From contig SXSI01000020.1 of assembly GCA_005792285.1 (NCBI GenBank), positions 1,327-65,326 of the forward strand: a DNA stretch of 64,000 bases, written 5' to 3'. Position 1 is the first letter of the stretch; each line of letters starts with the position of its first letter. This document shows, piece by piece, positions 33,079-41,561 of the stretch. Source of the DNA: Bacteroidota bacterium (GTDB taxonomy: Bacteria; Bacteroidota; Ignavibacteria; UBA10030; UBA8401). A program made the translations under genes and the position numbers. The notes under the pieces were generated by a model. It saw only the letters and a list, made by a program, of their open reading frames with translations, had not been told where the DNA came from and made no database searches.

Positions 33079-36000
33079 ATGGCTAAATCAATTTTATCAA
33101 CACTATCTCATTCTGAACAATTCAAGAAATTAACAGAAAATATACCTTCTGCTGAAAAGCCATTTACAATTTCGGGCGTTTGCGGTTCGCTTTGGGCTTT
33201 GATAACAGCGCAATTATTCAAAGAATTTCAACAAAAAATAATTGTAGTTTCTGCCGAAAGAGAATCTGCGGAAATAATTAGAGATGATCTTGCAACATTA
33301 GTTGGCTCTGCAAATGTTTTCTTTTCATCTTACGAACCAAAATTAGCAACCGAGTCGTTTGATATGACAGGCGAAATAAGTCAAATTGAATCTCTGCAAA
33401 AATTAATTTCTCCCAATCCAATAATAATTGTAACATACATTGCGGCGATTACTACAAAGGTTCCTGCTCCTGATTTAATAAAATCGAAAATGATTTCGAT
33501 ATATCGTGGTTCTGAATTACAATACGAAAACTTTATTTCAATATTAACAGAGAATGGTTTTACAAGAAAAAATTTTATTGAAACCTACGGCGATTTTGCA
33601 GTTCGTGGTGGGATAATTGATCTTTTTCCAATTACCGGCGAACATCCGTATCGGTTGGAATTTTGGGGAGATATGGTTGAGTCGATTCGTGAATTCGATA
33701 TTTTTTCGCAGAGATCAATCCGTGAAGTTGGTGAAATATTTATTCTTCCGAAATTCGAACCTTCATCATCAACGAGTACAATCTTCGATTACATTAACAA
33801 TGAAGCAATTATTTTTTACGATGATCCGATAAAACTTTCTAAGGAACTTGATGAACTTCAATCGGAAGGGATTCCAACCGATTTATCGATGAATGATTTT
33901 TTAAAATTAATTTTACAACAAAAAAGAATTGAACATAAAATTTTTAATACTTCAAATGTAGATATAAATTTTTCTGCCATTTCTCAACCGGCTTCTCATG
34001 GGAGTATGAAAACTTTAAATCATCAACTTGAGGAGTGTAATCGCAAAGGATTCGAAATCTGGATTTATTCCGAAACCAAAGAGGAATCAACTCGTCTTCA
34101 GGAATTATTAAATACAACTGATCTTGTTGAGGAAAATGAAAATTCAAATGAGCAATTAAAAAAATTTATTAATGAACTTCATTTTGTAACTGGCGAGTTC
34201 CATGAAGGATTTATTTATCCAAACTCGAATGTTGCTTTATTTACCGAACATCAAATTTTCGGCAGGATTAAACAGCATAAAAATCCGAAACGAAAACGAT
34301 TTAAAGGGATTTCGCAAAAAGAATTACACGTTTTAAAGGGTGGCGATTTTGTAGTTCATATTGATCATGGTATTGGTAAATATTTTGGAATGAAATATAT
34401 TTCTGTCGGTGGAAATCAACAGGAAGTTGTAAAATTAGAGTATGCAAATAGTGGGACTCTTTTTGTAAATGTTAATTTTATAAATCGCATTCAAAAATAT
34501 TCTTCTGCGGAAGGACATATTCCAACATTAAACACTCTCGGTGGAAAAGAGTGGGACAGAACTAAACAACGTGCTAAGAAAAAAATAAAAGATATTGCAC
34601 GCGATTTAATTAAACTTTATGCGTTAAGAAAAAATTCTACCGGATTTGCTTTTTCAGCCGATACGCCATGGCAAAAAGAAATGGAAGCTTCTTTTATGTA
34701 CGACGATACTCCAGATCAGGCAACTGCAACTTTATTTGTAAAACAGGATATGGAAAGTTCGAGTCCGATGGACAGATTAATTTGTGGAGATGTTGGATTT
34801 GGAAAAACTGAAGTTGCAGTTCGTGCTGCATTTAAATCTGTAATGAGCGGAAAACAAGTTGCAGTTCTTGTGCCAACTACAATACTGGCACGGCAACATG
34901 GCAATACATTTTTAGATCGGCTCGGAAGATATTCTACGCGGATCGAAGTTCTTTCCCGATTTCGTTCTGCAAAAGAAATTAAAAATGCAATTGCACAAAT
35001 TGCAATTGGGCAAGTTGATATTGTGATTGGAACTCATCGATTACTTTCCAAAGATATAAATTTTAAAGATCTCGGCTTACTTATAATAGATGAAGAACAA
35101 CGCTTCGGAGTTTCGGCAAAAGAAAAACTTCGTTCGTTAAAAAATTCTGTTGATACATTAACACTTACCGCAACACCAATTCCGAGAACTTTACAATTTT
35201 CATTAATGGGTTCGCGCGACTTGTCAATTATTTCAACTCCGCCACGAAATCGTTATCCAATTCATACAGAAATTGCCGTCTTTGATAAAACAATTATTCG
35301 CGAAGCAATAATTCGGGAAATTCATCGCGGTGGACAAGTTTATATTGTTCACGACCGAATTAGTTCGATTGAACAAATTGTTTCAATGATTCAGGATTTT
35401 GTTCCGGAGGCCAGATTTTGTGTTGCTCATGGACAAATGAATGCGCATAAATTGGAAAAAGTTATGATAGATTTTATGGAAAGAAAATATAACGTGCTTG
35501 TCTCTACAAAAATAATTGAATCGGGAATTGATATTCCGAGTGTGAATACAATAATAATTAATCGCGCAGATAGATTTGGAATGGCGGAATTATATCAACT
35601 TCGTGGTCGTGTTGGAAGAAGTAATATTCAGGCATATGCATATTTATTGATTCCTCCATTCGCTTCACTTTCAAAAGAAACTTTACGAAGATTACAAGCT
35701 GTTGAAGAATTTACAGAACTTGGCTCGGGATTTAATTTGGCGATGCGCGATCTTGAAATTAGAGGTGCAGGAAATTTACTTGGTTCGGAACAAAGTGGTT
35801 TCGTTGCTGATATGGGTTTTGAAATGTATCAGCGACTTGTTAATGAAGCTGTTGCAGAATTGAAAGATGAAGAATTTCAAGAAGTTAATTCAGATTCATC
35901 CAAAAAAGAAATTGATGCTGTTGTTGAAGTTGATGTTGATGCATTTATTTCAGATGAATATGTTACTGATAATTCAGAACGCTTGGATTTGTACAGAAGA

Positions 36001-36387
36001 ATTGCACGAACAAAAAATGAAAAAGAAATTGATCTGTTTTATGTTGAACTTCGCGACAGATTCGGCGAACTCCCGATTGAAACAAATAATCTTTTAATAG
36101 TCGCACGATTAAGATTACTGCTTTCAAATATTCAATTACAAAAATTAATTATCCGCGGAGATAATGCAACTTTTTATTTCCCCTCAAAAGAAAATGTTTC
36201 TTTTTACGAAGGTGGTTTTTTTCAAAAATTTATTGCTGTAATCCCTACTTTATCACATAAGTTATTTTTTAAGGAAGAAAACAAGAAATCAGTTTTATAT
36301 GGTAAAATTAAATCCGCCAGCAACGAAGAACGTTTGCAGCAAATAATATTTTTATTGAAAGATATTTCAGACAAAATTGAACTTTAA
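33079..36387 (+). CDS. mfd: Transcription-repair coupling factor
   Basis: 1102 aa. UvrB-homology N-terminal region, RNAP-interaction domain, superfamily-2 translocase motifs (GDVGFGKTEVAVRAAF, LIIDEEQRFGV, ...QLRGRVGRS) and a TRCF C-terminal domain. Confidence 0.92.
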   Translation: MAKSILSTLSHSEQFKKLTENIPSAEKPFTISGVCGSLWALITAQLFKEFQQKIIVVSAERESAEIIRDDLATLVGSANVFFSSYEPKLATESFDMTGEISQIESLQKLISPNPIIIVTYIAAITTKVPAPDLIKSKMISIYRGSELQYENFISILTENGFTRKNFIETYGDFAVRGGIIDLFPITGEHPYRLEFWGDMVESIREFDIFSQRSIREVGEIFILPKFEPSSSTSTIFDYINNEAIIFYDDPIKLSKELDELQSEGIPTDLSMNDFLKLILQQKRIEHKIFNTSNVDINFSAISQPASHGSMKTLNHQLEECNRKGFEIWIYSETKEESTRLQELLNTTDLVEENENSNEQLKKFINELHFVTGEFHEGFIYPNSNVALFTEHQIFGRIKQHKNPKRKRFKGISQKELHVLKGGDFVVHIDHGIGKYFGMKYISVGGNQQEVVKLEYANSGTLFVNVNFINRIQKYSSAEGHIPTLNTLGGKEWDRTKQRAKKKIKDIARDLIKLYALRKNSTGFAFSADTPWQKEMEASFMYDDTPDQATATLFVKQDMESSSPMDRLICGDVGFGKTEVAVRAAFKSVMSGKQVAVLVPTTILARQHGNTFLDRLGRYSTRIEVLSRFRSAKEIKNAIAQIAIGQVDIVIGTHRLLSKDINFKDLGLLIIDEEQRFGVSAKEKLRSLKNSVDTLTLTATPIPRTLQFSLMGSRDLSIISTPPRNRYPIHTEIAVFDKTIIREAIIREIHRGGQVYIVHDRISSIEQIVSMIQDFVPEARFCVAHGQMNAHKLEKVMIDFMERKYNVLVSTKIIESGIDIPSVNTIIINRADRFGMAELYQLRGRVGRSNIQAYAYLLIPPFASLSKETLRRLQAVEEFTELGSGFNLAMRDLEIRGAGNLLGSEQSGFVADMGFEMYQRLVNEAVAELKDEEFQEVNSDSSKKEIDAVVEVDVDAFISDEYVTDNSERLDLYRRIARTKNEKEIDLFYVELRDRFGELPIETNNLLIVARLRLLLSNIQLQKLIIRGDNATFYFPSKENVSFYEGGFFQKFIAVIPTLSHKLFFKEENKKSVLYGKIKSASNEERLQQIIFLLKDISDKIEL

Positions 36388-36411
36388 TCTTAATTATTGT
36401 AAATTATTTCT

Positions 36412-36675
36412 ATGAAAGAATTAATAACTTGGCTCTTCGGAATAAGCTTGTTGGTAAACGCTGGATTATTTATCCCTCAAATAATAAAAATATTGAAAAC
36501 CAAAAGTGCAAAAGATTTTTCTATTTTAACCTTTGGTGGATTTAATGTCCTGCAAATAGTAGGCATTTTGTACGGATACATCCAAAATGACTTTACCTTA
36601 ATGTGGGGTATGGTTGTAAGTTTAATTGCGTGCGGCTCGGTAACATTGCTCGCATTTATTTATCGCAAAAATTAA
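36412..36675 (+). CDS. PQ-loop / SemiSWEET-like small membrane transporter
   Basis: 87 aa with three predicted TM helices and a PQ motif in TM1 (LFIPQIIKILKTKSAKDFS). Size and topology match bacterial SemiSWEETs. Confidence 0.5.
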   Translation: MKELITWLFGISLLVNAGLFIPQIIKILKTKSAKDFSILTFGGFNVLQIVGILYGYIQNDFTLMWGMVVSLIACGSVTLLAFIYRKN

Positions 36676-37027
36676 TAGTGATAATGTTTGGAATAAAACT
36701 CACTTACTAAGTGGAAATTTATTTATATGGGCATCTTCCGTGATGCTTATTGGGATTTTCGTAGAACCTTTCTATTCTTTTATTTTAATTATTTCAAGCA
36801 TTTCGATTGTTCAATGTTCTTTTCCTGTAATACAAAAAATGGAACAGGCACGTTAATTGATTTTATACGAAAATGATAAATACCATACTTACAGTTGGTT
36901 AGACCCTGAAGGGGACTTGGAGTTCAAGCAATAGTTAAATATAAGTGGACAACGAAAAACGAGAAAATAGAGTTTTCTTTGCATCAGAAAACGAAGCTAT
37001 TAAAAACGACAATCGACATCGAAAACA

Positions 37028-37660
37028 TTGTTTGAAAACAGAATACAAAAAATGGATTTATTTAACAACAAAATAGACTTTTTAGAAAATTTATTACCTA
37101 AAGATGGTATAATAAATTATTACGGGAAGTTGCTGACAAACAAAGAAGCAAATCACTATTTCGACAGTTTAATGAAGACAATCGAATGGAAAAATGACCA
37201 GGCTATTATATACGGAAAACTGATAGTAACAAAACGAAAAGTAGCTTGGTATGGCGACACTAATTTTGAATACAAATATTCTAACACAACTAAACGAGCC
37301 TTAACTTGGACAACTGAATTATTAGATTTAAAATCAATCGTCCAAGAAAAAACAGGCGAAAAGTTTAATTCCTGTTTGCTTAACTTATACCACACTGGCG
37401 AAGAAGGAATGGCGTGGCATAGTGATGCTGAAAAAGTTTTAAAGAAAAATGGAGCAATTGGATCATTGAGTTTTGGGGCAGAACGCAAATTTGCATTCAA
37501 GCATAAAAAAACAAAAGAAACTATTTCATTAATTCTAGAACACGGAAGTTTATTGGTAATGAAAGATATTACACAAACGAATTGGCTACATCGACTTCCA
37601 CCGACAAAGCTCACCAACAAACCAAGAATAAACTTAACTTTTAGGACAATTGTTCTCTGA
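37028..37660 (+). CDS. alkB: Alpha-ketoglutarate/Fe(II)-dependent dioxygenase AlkB (alkylated DNA/RNA repair)
   Basis: 2OG-Fe(II) oxygenase facial triad HxD...H (WHSDAE...HGSLLVM) and the R..L(N)LTFR C-terminal 2OG-binding motif (RINLTFRTI). About 210 aa. Confidence 0.8.
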   Translation: MFENRIQKMDLFNNKIDFLENLLPKDGIINYYGKLLTNKEANHYFDSLMKTIEWKNDQAIIYGKLIVTKRKVAWYGDTNFEYKYSNTTKRALTWTTELLDLKSIVQEKTGEKFNSCLLNLYHTGEEGMAWHSDAEKVLKKNGAIGSLSFGAERKFAFKHKKTKETISLILEHGSLLVMKDITQTNWLHRLPPTKLTNKPRINLTFRTIVL

Positions 37661-37983
37661 ATTGCACGTCAACCGAGGAAGAAAATCAGCCCATAACACG
37701 TGCTTGGCAAAGATGAGAAATAAAAAAAATGAAACTCTTAAAGTTATGCAAAACAATAATAAACAGAAAAATTATAACCAAAAAAATTGACTAATTACTC
37801 CATCGTCCCTCAATTGATAGTTGCTTTATCAATAGCACATGTCTGGATATTTCGTTTTGATAATATCGTAAAAGAATTTACCAAATATGATTTGAATAAC
37901 TTAACTCCTAATTCAGTGGGAAGCCGGGCAAATATTTACATATTGACGGAGGAATGTATATTTTCAAAACCTCACAAAATTAC

Positions 37984-38700
37984 ATGACCGATACTTTCTT
38001 ATCAGCCCGTTGGGAAAATTTGATTATGGCAAACTATGCCATTGATCCTGAAATATTAAAACCATATTTGCCTAAAGGTGTTGAATTGGATTTTTACGAT
38101 GATAAAACATATGTTAGTCTTGTTGGTTTTATGTTTAAAAAAACAAGCCTGTTCCATATACCCATTCCGTTTTTAGGAACCTTTGAAGAAATCAATCTGC
38201 GTTTTTATGTAAAAAGAATTGAAGGAAATTCCATAAAAAGAGGTGTGGTATTTATCAACGAAACTGTTCCCTATAAAGCCGTAGCCTGGCTTGCCAATAA
38301 ATTATATAAAGAACATTACATCGCTATTCCTACAAAAAATAAAATAGCTATTACCAATAGTTCAAAGAAGATAAAGTATGAATGGAAAATAAAAAATGAA
38401 TGGAATCATATTGCAGTAAATACCGGTGTGGAAAAAGAACAAATGCAACTTGGCAGTATAGAAGAATTCATTTTTGAACATTACTACGGGTACACTAAAG
38501 TCAACAATCAACATTCACAAGAATACAAAGTGAACCATCCAAGGTGGCAGGTGAATAAAGTGCTTGACTATGAAATTAATTGCAACTTTGAGGCAATGTA
38601 TGGTGCTGACTTTTCTTTTTTAAAAAATGTACAAGCAAAATCGGTTATTGTTGCTGAGGGCTCACCTATTACTGTAAATTGGAGACGAATTTCATTTTAA
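37984..38700 (+). CDS. DUF2071-like (YqjF-like) conserved hypothetical protein
   Basis: ...FLSARWENLIMANYAIDPEILKPYLPKGVELD... fits the N-terminal W.NL.M.NY...P..L...LP.G.ELD pattern I associate with DUF2071. The ORF-track start at 37954 is possible; the Met at 37984 matches family starts better. Confidence 0.45.
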   Translation: MTDTFLSARWENLIMANYAIDPEILKPYLPKGVELDFYDDKTYVSLVGFMFKKTSLFHIPIPFLGTFEEINLRFYVKRIEGNSIKRGVVFINETVPYKAVAWLANKLYKEHYIAIPTKNKIAITNSSKKIKYEWKIKNEWNHIAVNTGVEKEQMQLGSIEEFIFEHYYGYTKVNNQHSQEYKVNHPRWQVNKVLDYEINCNFEAMYGADFSFLKNVQAKSVIVAEGSPITVNWRRISF

Positions 38701-38709
38701 AAATTCAAT

Positions 38710-38982
38710 TTGATGGAACAAAAAGATATTGACAGAATCATTGAAATGGCATGGGAAGACAGAACACCTTTTGAAGCCATAAAAATACAATTTGATTTTT
38801 CAGAAGCAGATGTAATTGCACTTATGCGAAGAGAATTAAAGCACAGCAGTTTTAATTTATGGCGAAAGAGAGTAAACAGTGGTGTTAGCCAAAAGCATGC
38901 ACAAAAAAGAAATCCTAAGATAGAACGTTTTAAATCCAGCTTGCAAAAATCCATTTCTATGAATAAAATTAGCAAGTGGTAA
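38710..38982 (+). CDS. TIGR03643/DUF2805-like small protein (usual partner of CRY-DASH photolyase genes)
   Basis: MAWEDRTPFEAIKIQFDFSEADVIALMRRELKHSSFNLWRKRV... matches the conserved core of that family as I recall it. It ends 1 nt before the photolyase-family gene. Confidence 0.55.
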   Translation: MMEQKDIDRIIEMAWEDRTPFEAIKIQFDFSEADVIALMRRELKHSSFNLWRKRVNSGVSQKHAQKRNPKIERFKSSLQKSISMNKISKW

Positions 38983-38983
38983 A

Positions 38984-40084
38984 ATGAAAGCCAATTTTGC
39001 AAGTGATTACAAAACTATTCTCCAAAAAATTGATCAAGTTAATCCGGTTCAGTATGGCAAAACCAGGAATTATCTTAATGGAGCAGTTACCTATTTATCA
39101 CCCTACATATCACGAGGTGTTATCAGTACCAAACAGGTGCTTAACCAGATGTTAGTAAAGGGATTTGAATTGCATCAGATAGAACAATTTGCAAAGGAGT
39201 TATGCTGGCGGGATTATTTTCAGAGAGTAGGACAACATAAAGATTTACACAAAGATATCCGACAACAACAGCAAAGAGTGTCGAATAATGAATTGCCTAT
39301 TCAGGTTTTAAATGCAAGCATAGGAATTGAAGGAATTGATAACGCCATTCAACAATTATACGACACCGGATACATGCACAATCACTGCAGAATGTATACA
39401 GCTTCGTTAGTATGTAATATTGCCCAATCACATTGGTATAAGCCCGCGCAATGGATGTATTACTACTTGCTTGATGGAGATTGGGCTAGTAACTATTGCA
39501 GTTGGCAATGGGTAGCAGGCACCAATAGCAGTAAAAAATATTATGCCAATCAGGAAAACATCAACAAGTTCACTGCAACCAATCAATCTAACACCTACCT
39601 CGATAAACCATATGAATTTTTGGAAACAATGGATACCCCTACTCCATTATTGACCACTCAAAATTTTGAACCTAAAATAAATTTGCCTGTAGCTTCAGCA
39701 ATAAACATAAATGAGGCACTGCCAGCTTTTATTTACAATTACTATAATCTCGATCCGCTTTGGCATAAAGATGAACAAGGCAACAGAATTTTATTGATTG
39801 AACCCGATTTTTTTTCAAAATATCCAGTAAGTAAAACCTGTATAGAATTTATGCTGGCATTGAGCAAAAATATTCCTGGCATACAAGTATTTGTTGGTTC
39901 TTTTCAATCCTTTGCCAACAGGTACAACTTAAGAACTATTTATTACAAAGAACATCCACTTAATATCGGCTACATAGGAAATGAAGAACCAAGGGAATGG
40001 ATTGCCGAAAATGTTACGGAATACTATCCATCATTTTTTGGATATTGGAAAAAAGTAGAGAAGCAATTAAACACATTTAAATAA
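38984..40084 (+). CDS. Photolyase/cryptochrome-superfamily protein with inverted domain order (NewPHL-like): FAD-binding domain N-terminal, alpha/beta domain C-terminal
   Basis: The N-terminal 200 aa carry the photolyase FAD-binding-domain signatures (TYLSPYISRGVIS; ELCWRDYFQ; DTGYMHNHCRMYTASLVCN...WYKPAQWMYYYLLDGDWASNYCSWQWVAGTNSS). The C-terminal about 150 aa (NRILLIEPDFF...FMLALSKNIPGIQVFVGSF...YKEHPLN) fit the pattern of the photolyase N-terminal alpha/beta domain. No room exists upstream for a canonical N-domain. Confidence 0.6.
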   Translation: MKANFASDYKTILQKIDQVNPVQYGKTRNYLNGAVTYLSPYISRGVISTKQVLNQMLVKGFELHQIEQFAKELCWRDYFQRVGQHKDLHKDIRQQQQRVSNNELPIQVLNASIGIEGIDNAIQQLYDTGYMHNHCRMYTASLVCNIAQSHWYKPAQWMYYYLLDGDWASNYCSWQWVAGTNSSKKYYANQENINKFTATNQSNTYLDKPYEFLETMDTPTPLLTTQNFEPKINLPVASAININEALPAFIYNYYNLDPLWHKDEQGNRILLIEPDFFSKYPVSKTCIEFMLALSKNIPGIQVFVGSFQSFANRYNLRTIYYKEHPLNIGYIGNEEPREWIAENVTEYYPSFFGYWKKVEKQLNTFK

Positions 40085-40088
40085 ACAA

Positions 40089-40697
40089 ATGCTAATTCGT
40101 AAAAAAGAAATAGAACAATTAGAGCAGCGTTATAGAACAGCATTTATCAACTCATTAGCAGGTTTTAGACAAGCGGTATTGGTAGGAACTAAATCAATTG
40201 ACGGAAATAACAATTTAGCTATCTTTAATTCACTTATTCATTTAGGCGCTAATCCAGCATTATTTGGTTTAATAAACCGACCTGATAGCGTGCAGAGAGA
40301 TACACTCCAAAATATATTAGATACCAAAGAGTATACCCTAAATTTTGTGAATGCTGAAGCTTACAAAAAAGCACATCAAACTTCGGCTAGGTATGAGAAA
40401 GGAGTTTCTGAATTTGAAAAAGTTGGCTTAACGCCTCAATATCAGGAAGCTTGTAGTGCTCCATTTGTAGGAGAAGCTGTGGTAAAAATCGCAATGAAAT
40501 TAGAAGAAATAATTCCAATAAAAATTAACGGAACGATACTTATTGTGGGTAGTATTATGGAGGTAAATTTAAGTGATGAACTTGTTGGCGATGATGGATT
40601 TGTAAATTTATCTGCAGCGGATGTTTTAATTAGTCAGGGATTAGACGCCTATTATACTTCCAACCCGATTGGCCGATTGCCATATGCAAAACCATAA
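40089..40697 (+). CDS. Flavin reductase-like (FMN-binding split-barrel) protein
   Basis: 202 aa. ...AFINSLAGFRQAVLVGTKS...NLAIFNSL... resembles the PF01613 flavin-reductase core. 4-nt gap from the upstream gene. Confidence 0.6.
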   Translation: MLIRKKEIEQLEQRYRTAFINSLAGFRQAVLVGTKSIDGNNNLAIFNSLIHLGANPALFGLINRPDSVQRDTLQNILDTKEYTLNFVNAEAYKKAHQTSARYEKGVSEFEKVGLTPQYQEACSAPFVGEAVVKIAMKLEEIIPIKINGTILIVGSIMEVNLSDELVGDDGFVNLSAADVLISQGLDAYYTSNPIGRLPYAKP

Positions 40698-40726: not shown

Positions 40727-40876
40727 ATGAAAAAGATTAAAAAAGAATTTTTACCTCAAAAGATTTGTGTAGTTTGTAAAAGATCTTTTAGCTGGCGTAA
40801 AAAATGGGAAAAGGTTTGGGATGAAGTAAAATATTGTAGTGATAAATGTAGAATGAATAAAAAACAACATGAGTAA
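40727..40876 (+). CDS. DUF2256 zinc-ribbon small protein (49 aa), unannotated in the ORF track
   Basis: [49 protein letters not shown]. The CxxC...WRKKW...YCSxxCR pattern is characteristic of DUF2256, a family that co-occurs with photolyase genes. Confidence 0.6.
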
Positions 40877-41561
40877 AACAGGTATTGTATTTCCACATCA
40901 ATTGTTTGAGCAAAATATTTTGGCATCAACATGCAATACGATATATCTGATAGAAGAGTGGCTCTACTTCAGGCAATATAATTTTCACAAAAGGAAAATT
41001 GCCTTTCATAGATCCAGTATGAAGTTTTATGAAAGTTATTTACAGTCAAAAAAAATAAAAGTAGTATACATTGATGCATTTAATGAATCTATTTTAAAAG
41101 CTACTGGGAAATATTGGGAAAAATGGTTTTCTATAATTTTAAAAGTCGGCGGTAAAAAACTTTCTCGCCAGGAAATAGTTTTAGTTCTACATAAATATTT
41201 AAAGGGGACAGGTTGGTGGGAACAGATGATTACTGTTCAATTCGATAAAAAATATAAGAATAGAGCTTTATATCAATCTGGTAAAACTTTTAAAGTTTCT
41301 ATCAGCAAAGTATTTAATTTTCCAATCGAAAGAGTTTTTGATAGCTGGATAAATAAACCAGTAATTTCAAAATGGCTTACAAATAAAAGTTTTACTATTC
41401 GAAAATCAACTTCCCAAAAATCACTTCGGTTAATTTGGGTTGATTATAAAACATTCGTAGATGTTGACTTTTATGTAAAAGCAAAGGGGAAACAACTGTC
41501 GTTGTGCAATTTTCAAAACTACCTTCTGCAGATGAATGTGAAAAGAAAAAGGTGTTTATGA
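40869..41561 (+). CDS. Chimeric ORF: N-terminal remnant of a COG3046 (FeS-BCP / 6-4-photolyase-related) gene fused in-frame to an SRPBCC-domain protein (likely start of the intact part at M120, nt 41226)
   Basis: Residues 1-75 ([11 protein letters not shown]...[34 protein letters not shown]...[10 protein letters not shown]) match the N-terminal alpha/beta domain of the COG3046 family as I recall it (LVL.LGDQL...HKKKIAF..SAMRHF...YR.RY.R.DD). From MITVQ... onward ([26 protein letters not shown]...) it reads as an SRPBCC/AHSA1-like domain. No FAD-binding domain follows. Confidence 0.4.

Follow-up and report, generated by a model that had tools for sequence, protein, structure and literature searches.

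Is a photolyase gene that begins inside what is normally the C-terminal half of the enzyme a genuine gene with an inverted domain order, or the residue of a canonical one, and, if genuine, what does its product do? The question is raised by a gene for a 366-residue protein in a stretch of 64,000 nucleotides (hereafter, the window) from a Bacteroidota bacterium of the Ignavibacteria (assembly GCA_005792285.1, contig SXSI01000020.1, positions 1,327 to 65,326), for which an original prediction, made without database searches, had proposed a photolyase of the NewPHL type. As judged from sequence comparisons, the protein belongs to the NewPHL/SPL class of photolyases, and within it to the bacteroidetal "Ba" subgroup, and is hence a further example of a class that has been described before; its membership in the class as a whole appears close to certain. 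The best-supported reading of its function, to which we assign a probability of roughly 0.8, is that of a flavin photolyase which splits cyclobutane pyrimidine dimers (CPDs) where DNA is single-stranded or unwound, the exact substrate specificity being held less firmly than class membership.

NewPHL proteins (Emmerich et al. 2020, Nucleic Acids Research (NAR) 48:12845, PMC7736829) lack the N-terminal antenna domain of other photolyases. Their catalytic domain, which is N-terminal and contains strictly conserved CPD active-site residues and a tryptophan (Trp) dyad, is followed by a C-terminal Z-domain of ~150 residues that contains a GFF motif and a single conserved Trp and seals the site of flavin adenine dinucleotide (FAD). 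NewPHLs repair CPDs in single-stranded and not in duplex DNA, and their occurrence is nearly exclusive with that of CRY-DASH; by the published rule of co-occurrence, a genome with a NewPHL also has a class I or (6-4) photolyase and usually no CRY-DASH. The enzymes of D. shibae and M. mesophilicum (DsNewPHL, A8LJA9, and MmNewPHL, M7YZC8) displayed light-dependent CPD repair in oligo(dT) and none in duplex, whereas the NewCRY group is defined by the loss of substrate-contacting residues (PMC7736829). The same class was described as SPL (Xu et al. 2021, Molecular Biology and Evolution (MBE) 38:4505, PMC8476157) and divided into subgroups A, C, Be, Ba, and Ac. In subgroup Ba, represented by CmSPL of Cyclobacterium marinum, 20 of the 24 members come from Bacteroidetes; four Fe-S cysteines are confined to subgroups C and Ac, and RfSPL was found to repair CPDs (PMC8476157). 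A paper from 2026 treats the class as established. What the original prediction had stated of the NewPHL study (published about 2020, inverted topology, CPD repair in single-stranded DNA, replacement of CRY-DASH) is accurate.

The open reading frame (ORF) at 38984..40084 and the one upstream of it, 38710..38982, which encodes a DUF2805 protein, were both located where they had been placed, and every peptide signature quoted for the photolyase was found in its 366-residue product. A single nucleotide indeed separates the two genes: the TAA stop codon of the DUF2805 gene (38980-38982) is followed by one A and then by the ATG at 38984. The nearest in-frame stop 5′ of this ATG lies at 38960, only eight codons away, and therefore no N-terminal domain is concealed in the photolyase frame; with the upstream frames taken by the DUF2805 and DUF2071 genes, the claim that neither a hidden domain nor a 5′ truncation is involved stands. 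An identical protein is encoded in four independent assemblies, including GCA_005778925.1 (contig SXLK01000008.1). A word-indexed database search with the protein retrieved 5945 homologues at E ≤ 1e-5, the best 120 of which are 361-376 residues long and 66-100% identical to the query over 98-100% of its length. Among 50%-identity representatives, an exhaustive search gave E ≤ 1e-3 for 4474 proteins and E ≤ 1e-30 for 184; many of the matches are full-length (355-390 residues). Furthermore, a scan of species-representative genomes yielded 80 loci, nearly all from Bacteroidota and with Chitinophagaceae nearest (78% identity, in a metagenome-assembled genome of Lacibacter), and a few from Acidobacteriota, Verrucomicrobiota, and Ignavibacteria/Kapaibacteria. 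Given the 5945 homologues, their matching lengths and coverage, and the identical gene in four assemblies, the inverted architecture is no annotation accident. One could still suppose that the ORF is what is left of a decaying canonical photolyase gene, or the product of a frameshift or of misassembly, all the more so as two neighbouring genes of the same cluster are truncated. This explanation is scarcely credible in view of the thousands of homologues of equal length and architecture, the upstream stop codon and occupied upstream frames, the identity of the ORF across assemblies, and a fold prediction that is confident along the whole chain; on the first three of these grounds, a frameshift or truncation of the protein was rejected.

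That the protein starts inside the normally C-terminal photolyase domain was borne out by the NCBIfam photolyase and CRY-DASH models, to which residues 5-199 align at model positions ~201-416. The Pfam family FAD_binding_7, which had been expected to match strongly at residues of about 15-200, did match strongly (E 1e-21), but over a narrower extent, residues 69-194; for PF00875, a weak match at most had been anticipated, and none was obtained in the 366-residue protein even at E ≤ 1. By sequence, the nearest solved structures are those of class I photolyases (1TEZ/1OWL and 1DNP), which are matched through their C-terminal halves only, and the PDB sequence search found no solved NewPHL structure.

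Alignment with Escherichia coli PhrB places E72, W75, N133, M137, and W176 at the positions of the substrate residues E274, W277, N341, M345, and W384, respectively. The FAD residues R344, D372, and N378 are represented by R136, D164, and N170, the last of which is photolyase-type, D374 by D166, and the middle and proximal Trp pair, W359 and W382, by W151 and W174. The complement of CPD-photolyase catalytic and FAD-contact residues is complete except for A377 and G381, which are replaced by S169 and S173. The five substrate residues are invariant or at least 90% conserved among 45 relatives. The pair W174 and W151 constitutes a Trp dyad, the position of the distal W306 being occupied by Q95. 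A Fe-S cysteine motif of the form C-x2-C-x(3-8)-C was absent from 175 relatives; the Deinococcus homologue has CAGCPLADAEC.

The C-terminal part had been interpreted as an α/β domain, and the predicted structure agrees. An AlphaFold2 model, obtained with a 62-sequence alignment, consists of two packed domains, with a mean predicted local distance difference test (pLDDT) score of 96.6 and a predicted template modelling (pTM) score of 0.93; within the 141-residue Z-domain, the pLDDT is ~95-97. On this model, the Z-domain is a Rossmann-like α/β domain, in which residues 248-365 form a strand, a strand, helices, a strand, a helix, two further strands, and a long helix, in this order. The residues of its motif R337-E-W339-x11-S350-F-F are spaced like those of RDW-x11-GFF from a NewPHL-type protein of Ruegeria sp. 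TM1040, and the common pattern, R(D/E)W-x11-(G/S)FF, is the equivalent of the "GFF" motif described for NewPHL. Among 175 close and mid-distance relatives, 164 contain [GSN]F[FSM] within the last 60 residues, and relatives of 400-445 residues have SFS or SFT followed by two aromatic residues.

The interpretation of the Z-domain as a diverged photolyase antenna domain is moderately supported. Compared with the canonical antenna domain of crystal structures, it lacks the helices that follow strands 1 and 4, which would be in keeping with reports that no antenna chromophore is present. In a Foldseek comparison, no PDB structure matched the Z-domain significantly (a universal stress protein came closest, E 0.066), and HHalign comparisons of its profile with those of the N-terminal domains in canonical photolyases, class-I-like and FeS-BCP, were likewise not significant (E 0.03 and 0.45, respectively), their registers lying within the N-terminal domain. 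The Z-domain may thus be a stripped-down α/β antenna domain moved to the C-terminus, in which case the NewPHL/SPL class may have arisen when the domain order of a canonical two-domain photolyase was inverted. Were this true, it would contradict the view preferred in both founding papers, in which NewPHL/SPL is the minimal, ancestral photolyase (PMC7736829, PMC8476157).

As a stand-in for subgroup A we used the Ruegeria sp. TM1040 protein, which is encoded on a megaplasmid, has 410 residues, and is annotated as "FAD-binding domain-containing protein"; the spacing of its E83, W86, N153, W171, W194, and W196 is identical to that of E81, W84, N151, W169, W192, and W194 of DsNewPHL. In a pairwise comparison, the Ruegeria protein aligns with the 366-residue protein within the FAD domain alone, at 31% identity. 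At the level of profiles, HHalign aligned the window family with the Ruegeria-led family over residues 3-353 (E 2e-72), and the Z-regions alone, with the Ruegeria protein as the first row of a NewPHL-like group of 400-445 residues, matched with a probability of 97% (E 8.7e-11). In a similarity network based on EFI-style scores and on a small, biased sample of ~170 sequences, drawn without the published members and possible intermediates, the component of the 366-residue protein at a score of at least 70 comprises 70 short proteins. The Deinococcus-type and 400-445-residue proteins merge with it at 60 or more, the Ruegeria type at 30 or more, and canonical photolyases only at 20 or more; by this order of merging, the protein belongs with the short, inverted photolyases.

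All sequence and structure features of NewPHL that could be examined are present, in agreement with the assignment originally made: a catalytic domain that is N-terminal and unaccompanied by an antenna (residues 5-199 aligned, no PF00875), the CPD substrate residues, FAD residues, and Trp dyad identified on the PhrB map, and an ordered C-terminal Z-domain with a Trp and (G/S)FF. Placement in subgroup Ba follows from the Bacteroidetes lineage, the nearest genomes being those of Chitinophagaceae and other Bacteroidota, and from the absence of the four Fe-S cysteines. The models of other families were not reached: the CRY-DASH model TIGR02765 scored 72.5 bits against a cut-off of 317, over model positions 227-416 only; the class I CPD photolyase models NF007955 and TIGR03556 scored 70.6 bits against 506 and 62.6 against 885, respectively; and the protein has neither a DPRP match (PF04244) nor the Cys motif for the [4Fe-4S] cluster of FeS-BCP.

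A mechanism can be proposed in which the N-terminal helical domain would bind FAD and supply the complete CPD active site, with the Z-domain packed on the catalytic domain in the place of the antenna and shielding the flavin. Photoreduction would proceed via the two-tryptophan chain, W174 to W151, and under blue/UV-A light an electron would be passed from FADH- to the CPD, splitting the dimer. Canonical enzymes use an interdomain linker and a phosphate-binding loop to hold and kink the duplex; as the protein lacks both, its action would, as with CRY-DASH, most likely be restricted to DNA that is single-stranded or unwound. It would operate as part of a light/UV repair cluster consisting of DUF2071, DUF2805, NewPHL, a flavin-reductase-like protein, DUF2256, and, in relatives, a (6-4) photolyase.

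Alternatively, the protein might not repair DNA but act as a light sensor, that is, a bacterial cryptochrome signalling through its C-terminal domain or through the DUF2805 partner. Such a role was raised by Xu et al. (PMC8476157), most SPLs having C-terminal extensions and the deletion of RfSPL barely affecting photoreactivation, and it could accommodate the fact that the DUF2805 protein, encoded one nucleotide upstream of the photolyase, is small, basic, and strongly conserved. We nevertheless consider it unlikely, because all residues that contact the CPD substrate (E72, W75, N133, M137, and W176) are retained and (nearly) invariant in the family, whereas it is their loss that defines NewCRY. 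N170, the equivalent of PhrB N378, is also photolyase-type, the neighbourhood is one of DNA repair (FeS-BCP, AlkB-like, mfd), and three members of the class, DsNewPHL, MmNewPHL, and RfSPL, repair CPDs in vitro. Somewhat less likely still is a different or broader substrate range, which might include CPDs of RNA or of transcription bubbles, or else (6-4) photoproducts, whose repair would compensate for a truncated neighbour. In favour of this, the FeS-BCP gene next to the photolyase gene is truncated in the window genome, and mfd is located 2.6 kb upstream. However, the active site is of the CPD type, with N133 and M137 at the positions where eukaryotic (6-4) enzymes carry two histidines (HHLARH motif), and in 32 of 61 related loci the NewPHL gene coexists with an intact FeS-BCP gene no more than 3 kb downstream, indicating that the two enzymes are not redundant.

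It should be noted that several observations weigh against CPD repair in single-stranded DNA, which remains the preferred function, or against the class assignment behind it. The NewPHL/SPL enzymes that have been tested are only ~30-35% identical to the 366-residue protein, and over the FAD domain alone, so that its single-strand specificity is something we infer from the class, and the NewPHL/SPL literature consulted yielded no biochemically characterised member of subgroup Ba. When RfSPL was deleted, photoreactivation in vivo did not change significantly (PMC8476157). At the threshold of 1e-70 that was used to define NewPHL, the network component of the protein, in our small and biased sample, includes neither the Ruegeria nor the Deinococcus type. 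A377 and G381 are substituted by Ser and R342 by His; since these substitutions are also present in the Ruegeria protein, they are probably traits of the class. Finally, the truncation of both the partner (6-4) photolyase gene and a small membrane-protein gene points to some gene decay in the region.

The genes around the photolyase gene are arranged in the order mfd, SemiSWEET, AlkB-like oxygenase, DUF2071, DUF2805, NewPHL, flavin-reductase-like, DUF2256, and FeS-BCP remnant (Table 1). From DUF2071 to the remnant, consecutive genes overlap or are separated by 1-30 nt, and the photolyase gene is probably co-transcribed with the DUF2071, DUF2805, flavin-reductase-like, and DUF2256 genes. Promoter-like and terminator-like sites were no commoner than in shuffled sequence, and Rfam searches detected nothing in the window. 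The assignment of the upstream gene to TIGR03643/DUF2805, made in the original prediction, was confirmed by both family models. The ORF list starts this gene at TTG 38710; an ATG follows directly at 38713, and because the resulting 89-residue product is the one called in four independent assemblies, the latter is the likelier start. A sequence search revealed no relative of solved structure for the DUF2805 protein.

Table 1. Coordinates of the photolyase gene, its domains, and the neighbouring genes (numbered from the first nucleotide of the window).
Feature	Position	Strand	Evidence or remark
mfd, transcription-repair coupling factor	33079..36387	+	Pfam TRCF, UvrB_inter, CarD_TRCF_RID, and helicase domains
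AlkB-like 2-oxoglutarate (2OG)-Fe(II) oxygenase gene	37028..37660	+	Pfam 2OG-FeII_Oxy_2, E 4.8e-33; weak AlkB matches
DUF2071 gene, first of the likely operon	37954..38700	+	Pfam E 3.9e-51; syntenic in many related loci
DUF2805/TIGR03643 gene, 89 residues from ATG	38713..38982	+	Pfam E 7.8e-33; TIGR03643 108 bits, cut-off 66.6
NewPHL/SPL-type photolyase gene, 366 residues, intact	38984..40084	+	ORF list
N-terminal all-helical FAD/catalytic domain, residues 1-225	38984..39658	+	Residue map against E. coli PhrB; PDB sequence matches 1TEZ, 1DNP
C-terminal Z-domain, residues 226-366, five-stranded α/β, final helix with SFFGYW motif	39659..40081	+	
Flavin-reductase-like gene (PF01613), 4 nt after the photolyase gene	40089..40697	+	Pfam E 1.7e-15
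DUF2256 gene, 49 residues, 8-nt overlap with the next ORF	40727..40876	+	Pfam E 1.5e-21; called in four assemblies
FeS-BCP (6-4) photolyase remnant	40869..41561	+	Pfam DPRP at residues 6-86 only

The FeS-BCP remnant retains ~74 N-terminal codons (40869-41090), after which the frame runs on into unrelated sequence. Full-length FeS-BCP relatives (~492 residues) match the window at 40866-41087 only, and the 156-residue tail of the ORF corresponds to no Pfam family and has no match in the 80 related loci. As the truncation is identical in four independent assemblies, in one of which the product is further shortened to 182 residues, it reflects genuine decay of the gene and not a fault of assembly. 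Apart from the NewPHL gene and this remnant, the window contains no photolyase-like gene. The small membrane-protein gene has likewise been reduced to a remnant (37844-37924, + strand, inside the ORF 37787-37987), of which only ~27 residues are recognisable; an intact membrane protein of 117 residues is encoded at locus L124, and its residues 20-117 are matched at L001, L028, and L033. Immediately 5′ of the photolyase cluster, mfd, the gene for a SemiSWEET-like transporter, and the AlkB-like gene occupy the same strand (33079-37660). At L010, L011, and L069, too, the AlkB-like gene lies only a few kb from the cluster.

The cluster of DUF2071, DUF2805, NewPHL, flavin-reductase-like, DUF2256, and FeS-BCP genes is conserved in Bacteroidota. 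In a survey centred on NewPHL and covering 75 related genome loci with sufficient flanking sequence (61 for the FeS-BCP count given above), the DUF2805 gene is directly upstream of the NewPHL gene in 47 and the flavin-reductase-like gene directly downstream in 26. A canonical two-domain photolyase/cryptochrome gene is in addition located beside or near NewPHL in 20 of the 75 loci (e.g., L020, L026, L043, L047, L052, L059, L062, L063, and L075). Three such proteins were scored and none reached the NCBIfam equivalog or DASH cut-off; they are possibly of class III or NewCRY-like.

According to the original prediction, the gene that usually follows TIGR03643 in Bacteroidota photolyase operons is CRY-DASH. 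In this form, the statement was not reproduced in a survey of 58 evaluable metagenomic loci with close relatives of DUF2805: NewPHL comes after DUF2805 in 27 of them, at a distance of no more than 40 bp in 25, and a protein nearest to a two-domain photolyase-family protein of a Vibrio pelagius plasmid does so in two. In the other 29 loci, no photolyase directly follows, several having a flavin-reductase-like gene or a short-chain dehydrogenase/reductase gene at this place. CRY-DASH was confirmed at a single locus, L136 (993-4261), where CRY-DASH (449 bits against the cut-off of 317), FeS-BCP, and DUF2805 follow one another, with CRY-DASH before DUF2805, and NewPHL is missing; the BLAST pattern of L138 and L140 is the same. 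From the absence of the WQW motif in its sequence, the Vibrio pelagius protein is taken to be VcCry2/NewCRY-like. The neighbourhood of DUF2805 fits a scheme in which NewPHL and CRY-DASH fill one slot, and the presence of the two in alternative versions of one cluster agrees with the published idea that they substitute for each other.

DUF2805/TIGR03643 marks photolyase clusters generally, as it occurs not only in the DASH cluster but also beside DUF2256 and FeS-BCP on an Acinetobacter plasmid (L091) and on the Vibrio pelagius plasmid, near the photolyase-family gene and the flavin reductase relative that adjoins it (L092, 322-1011). Its company of either NewPHL or CRY-DASH, together with FeS-BCP, is the reason to think that DUF2805, along with the flavin-reductase-like protein, may be a dedicated partner of photolyases of single-stranded DNA. 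It is conceivable that the flavin-reductase-like protein keeps the photolyase flavin reduced, and the place of DUF2256 beside FeS-BCP, both in the window and on the Acinetobacter plasmid, suggests that this small protein is a conserved companion of (6-4) photolyases in bacteria. Taken jointly, the dedicated-partner proposal and the derivation of the Z-domain from a relocated antenna are tentative, and we would give the combination somewhat less than even odds. In some loci without NewPHL (L113, L150, and L156), the flavin-reductase-like gene directly follows DUF2805. A gene for a kinase of the ABC1/UbiB family lies directly after the Ruegeria NewPHL-type gene (L085, 5140-6489), and a fragment of an ABC1-kinase gene just 5′ of the CRY-DASH gene (L136, 131-742), a link that may be coincidental.

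The class, its inverted topology, the bacteroidetal subgroup, and the biochemical activity are already published; with the class known since 2020-2021 and routinely cited by 2026, one further member changes little by itself. What goes beyond the literature consulted is the fold-level hint of a relocated, antenna-type Z-domain and the description of the conserved cluster. Metagenomes contain the bacteroidetal subgroup in great abundance, and the 366-residue protein, for which a confident model is available, would make a reasonable representative of it. Furthermore, the recurrent association of DUF2805, NewPHL, flavin-reductase-like, DUF2256, and FeS-BCP genes, together with its CRY-DASH counterpart, provides candidates for accessory factors of photoreactivation.

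Set against the known systems, the protein resembles NewPHL/SPL of subgroup A in the lack of an N-terminal antenna domain, in the N-terminal FAD domain with a full CPD active site, and in the Trp dyad; as in NewPHL, an ordered C-terminal Z-domain of ~140-150 residues has (G/S)FF near its end, and the gene lies near that of a (6-4)/FeS-BCP photolyase, which is intact in relatives and a remnant in the window. It differs from NewPHL in being shorter (366 versus ~405-410 residues), in having SFF instead of GFF, and in that the kinship of its Z-domain to the Ruegeria type is detectable by profile comparison only. With subgroup Ba it shares the origin in Bacteroidota, the lack of the four-cysteine Fe-S motif, and the same conserved substrate and FAD residues, a likeness drawn from lineage, cysteines, and conserved residues, CmSPL being known here by its published description; homologues from Cyclobacteriaceae, Flexithrix, Dyadobacter, Chondrinema, and Persicobacter are 43-51% identical to it over the full length. 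The predicted activity, CPD repair in single-stranded DNA, would be that of CRY-DASH, and the cluster context with FeS-BCP and DUF2805 is shared as well, whereas the canonical domain order of CRY-DASH (an N-terminal antenna domain binding methenyltetrahydrofolate (MTHF), then the FAD domain) and its Trp triad are both absent from the 366-residue protein. Compared with the class I CPD photolyases of E. coli (PhrB, 1DNP) and Synechococcus (1TEZ), it lacks the N-terminal domain, the interdomain linker, and the distal Trp, and carries an α/β domain at the C-terminus.

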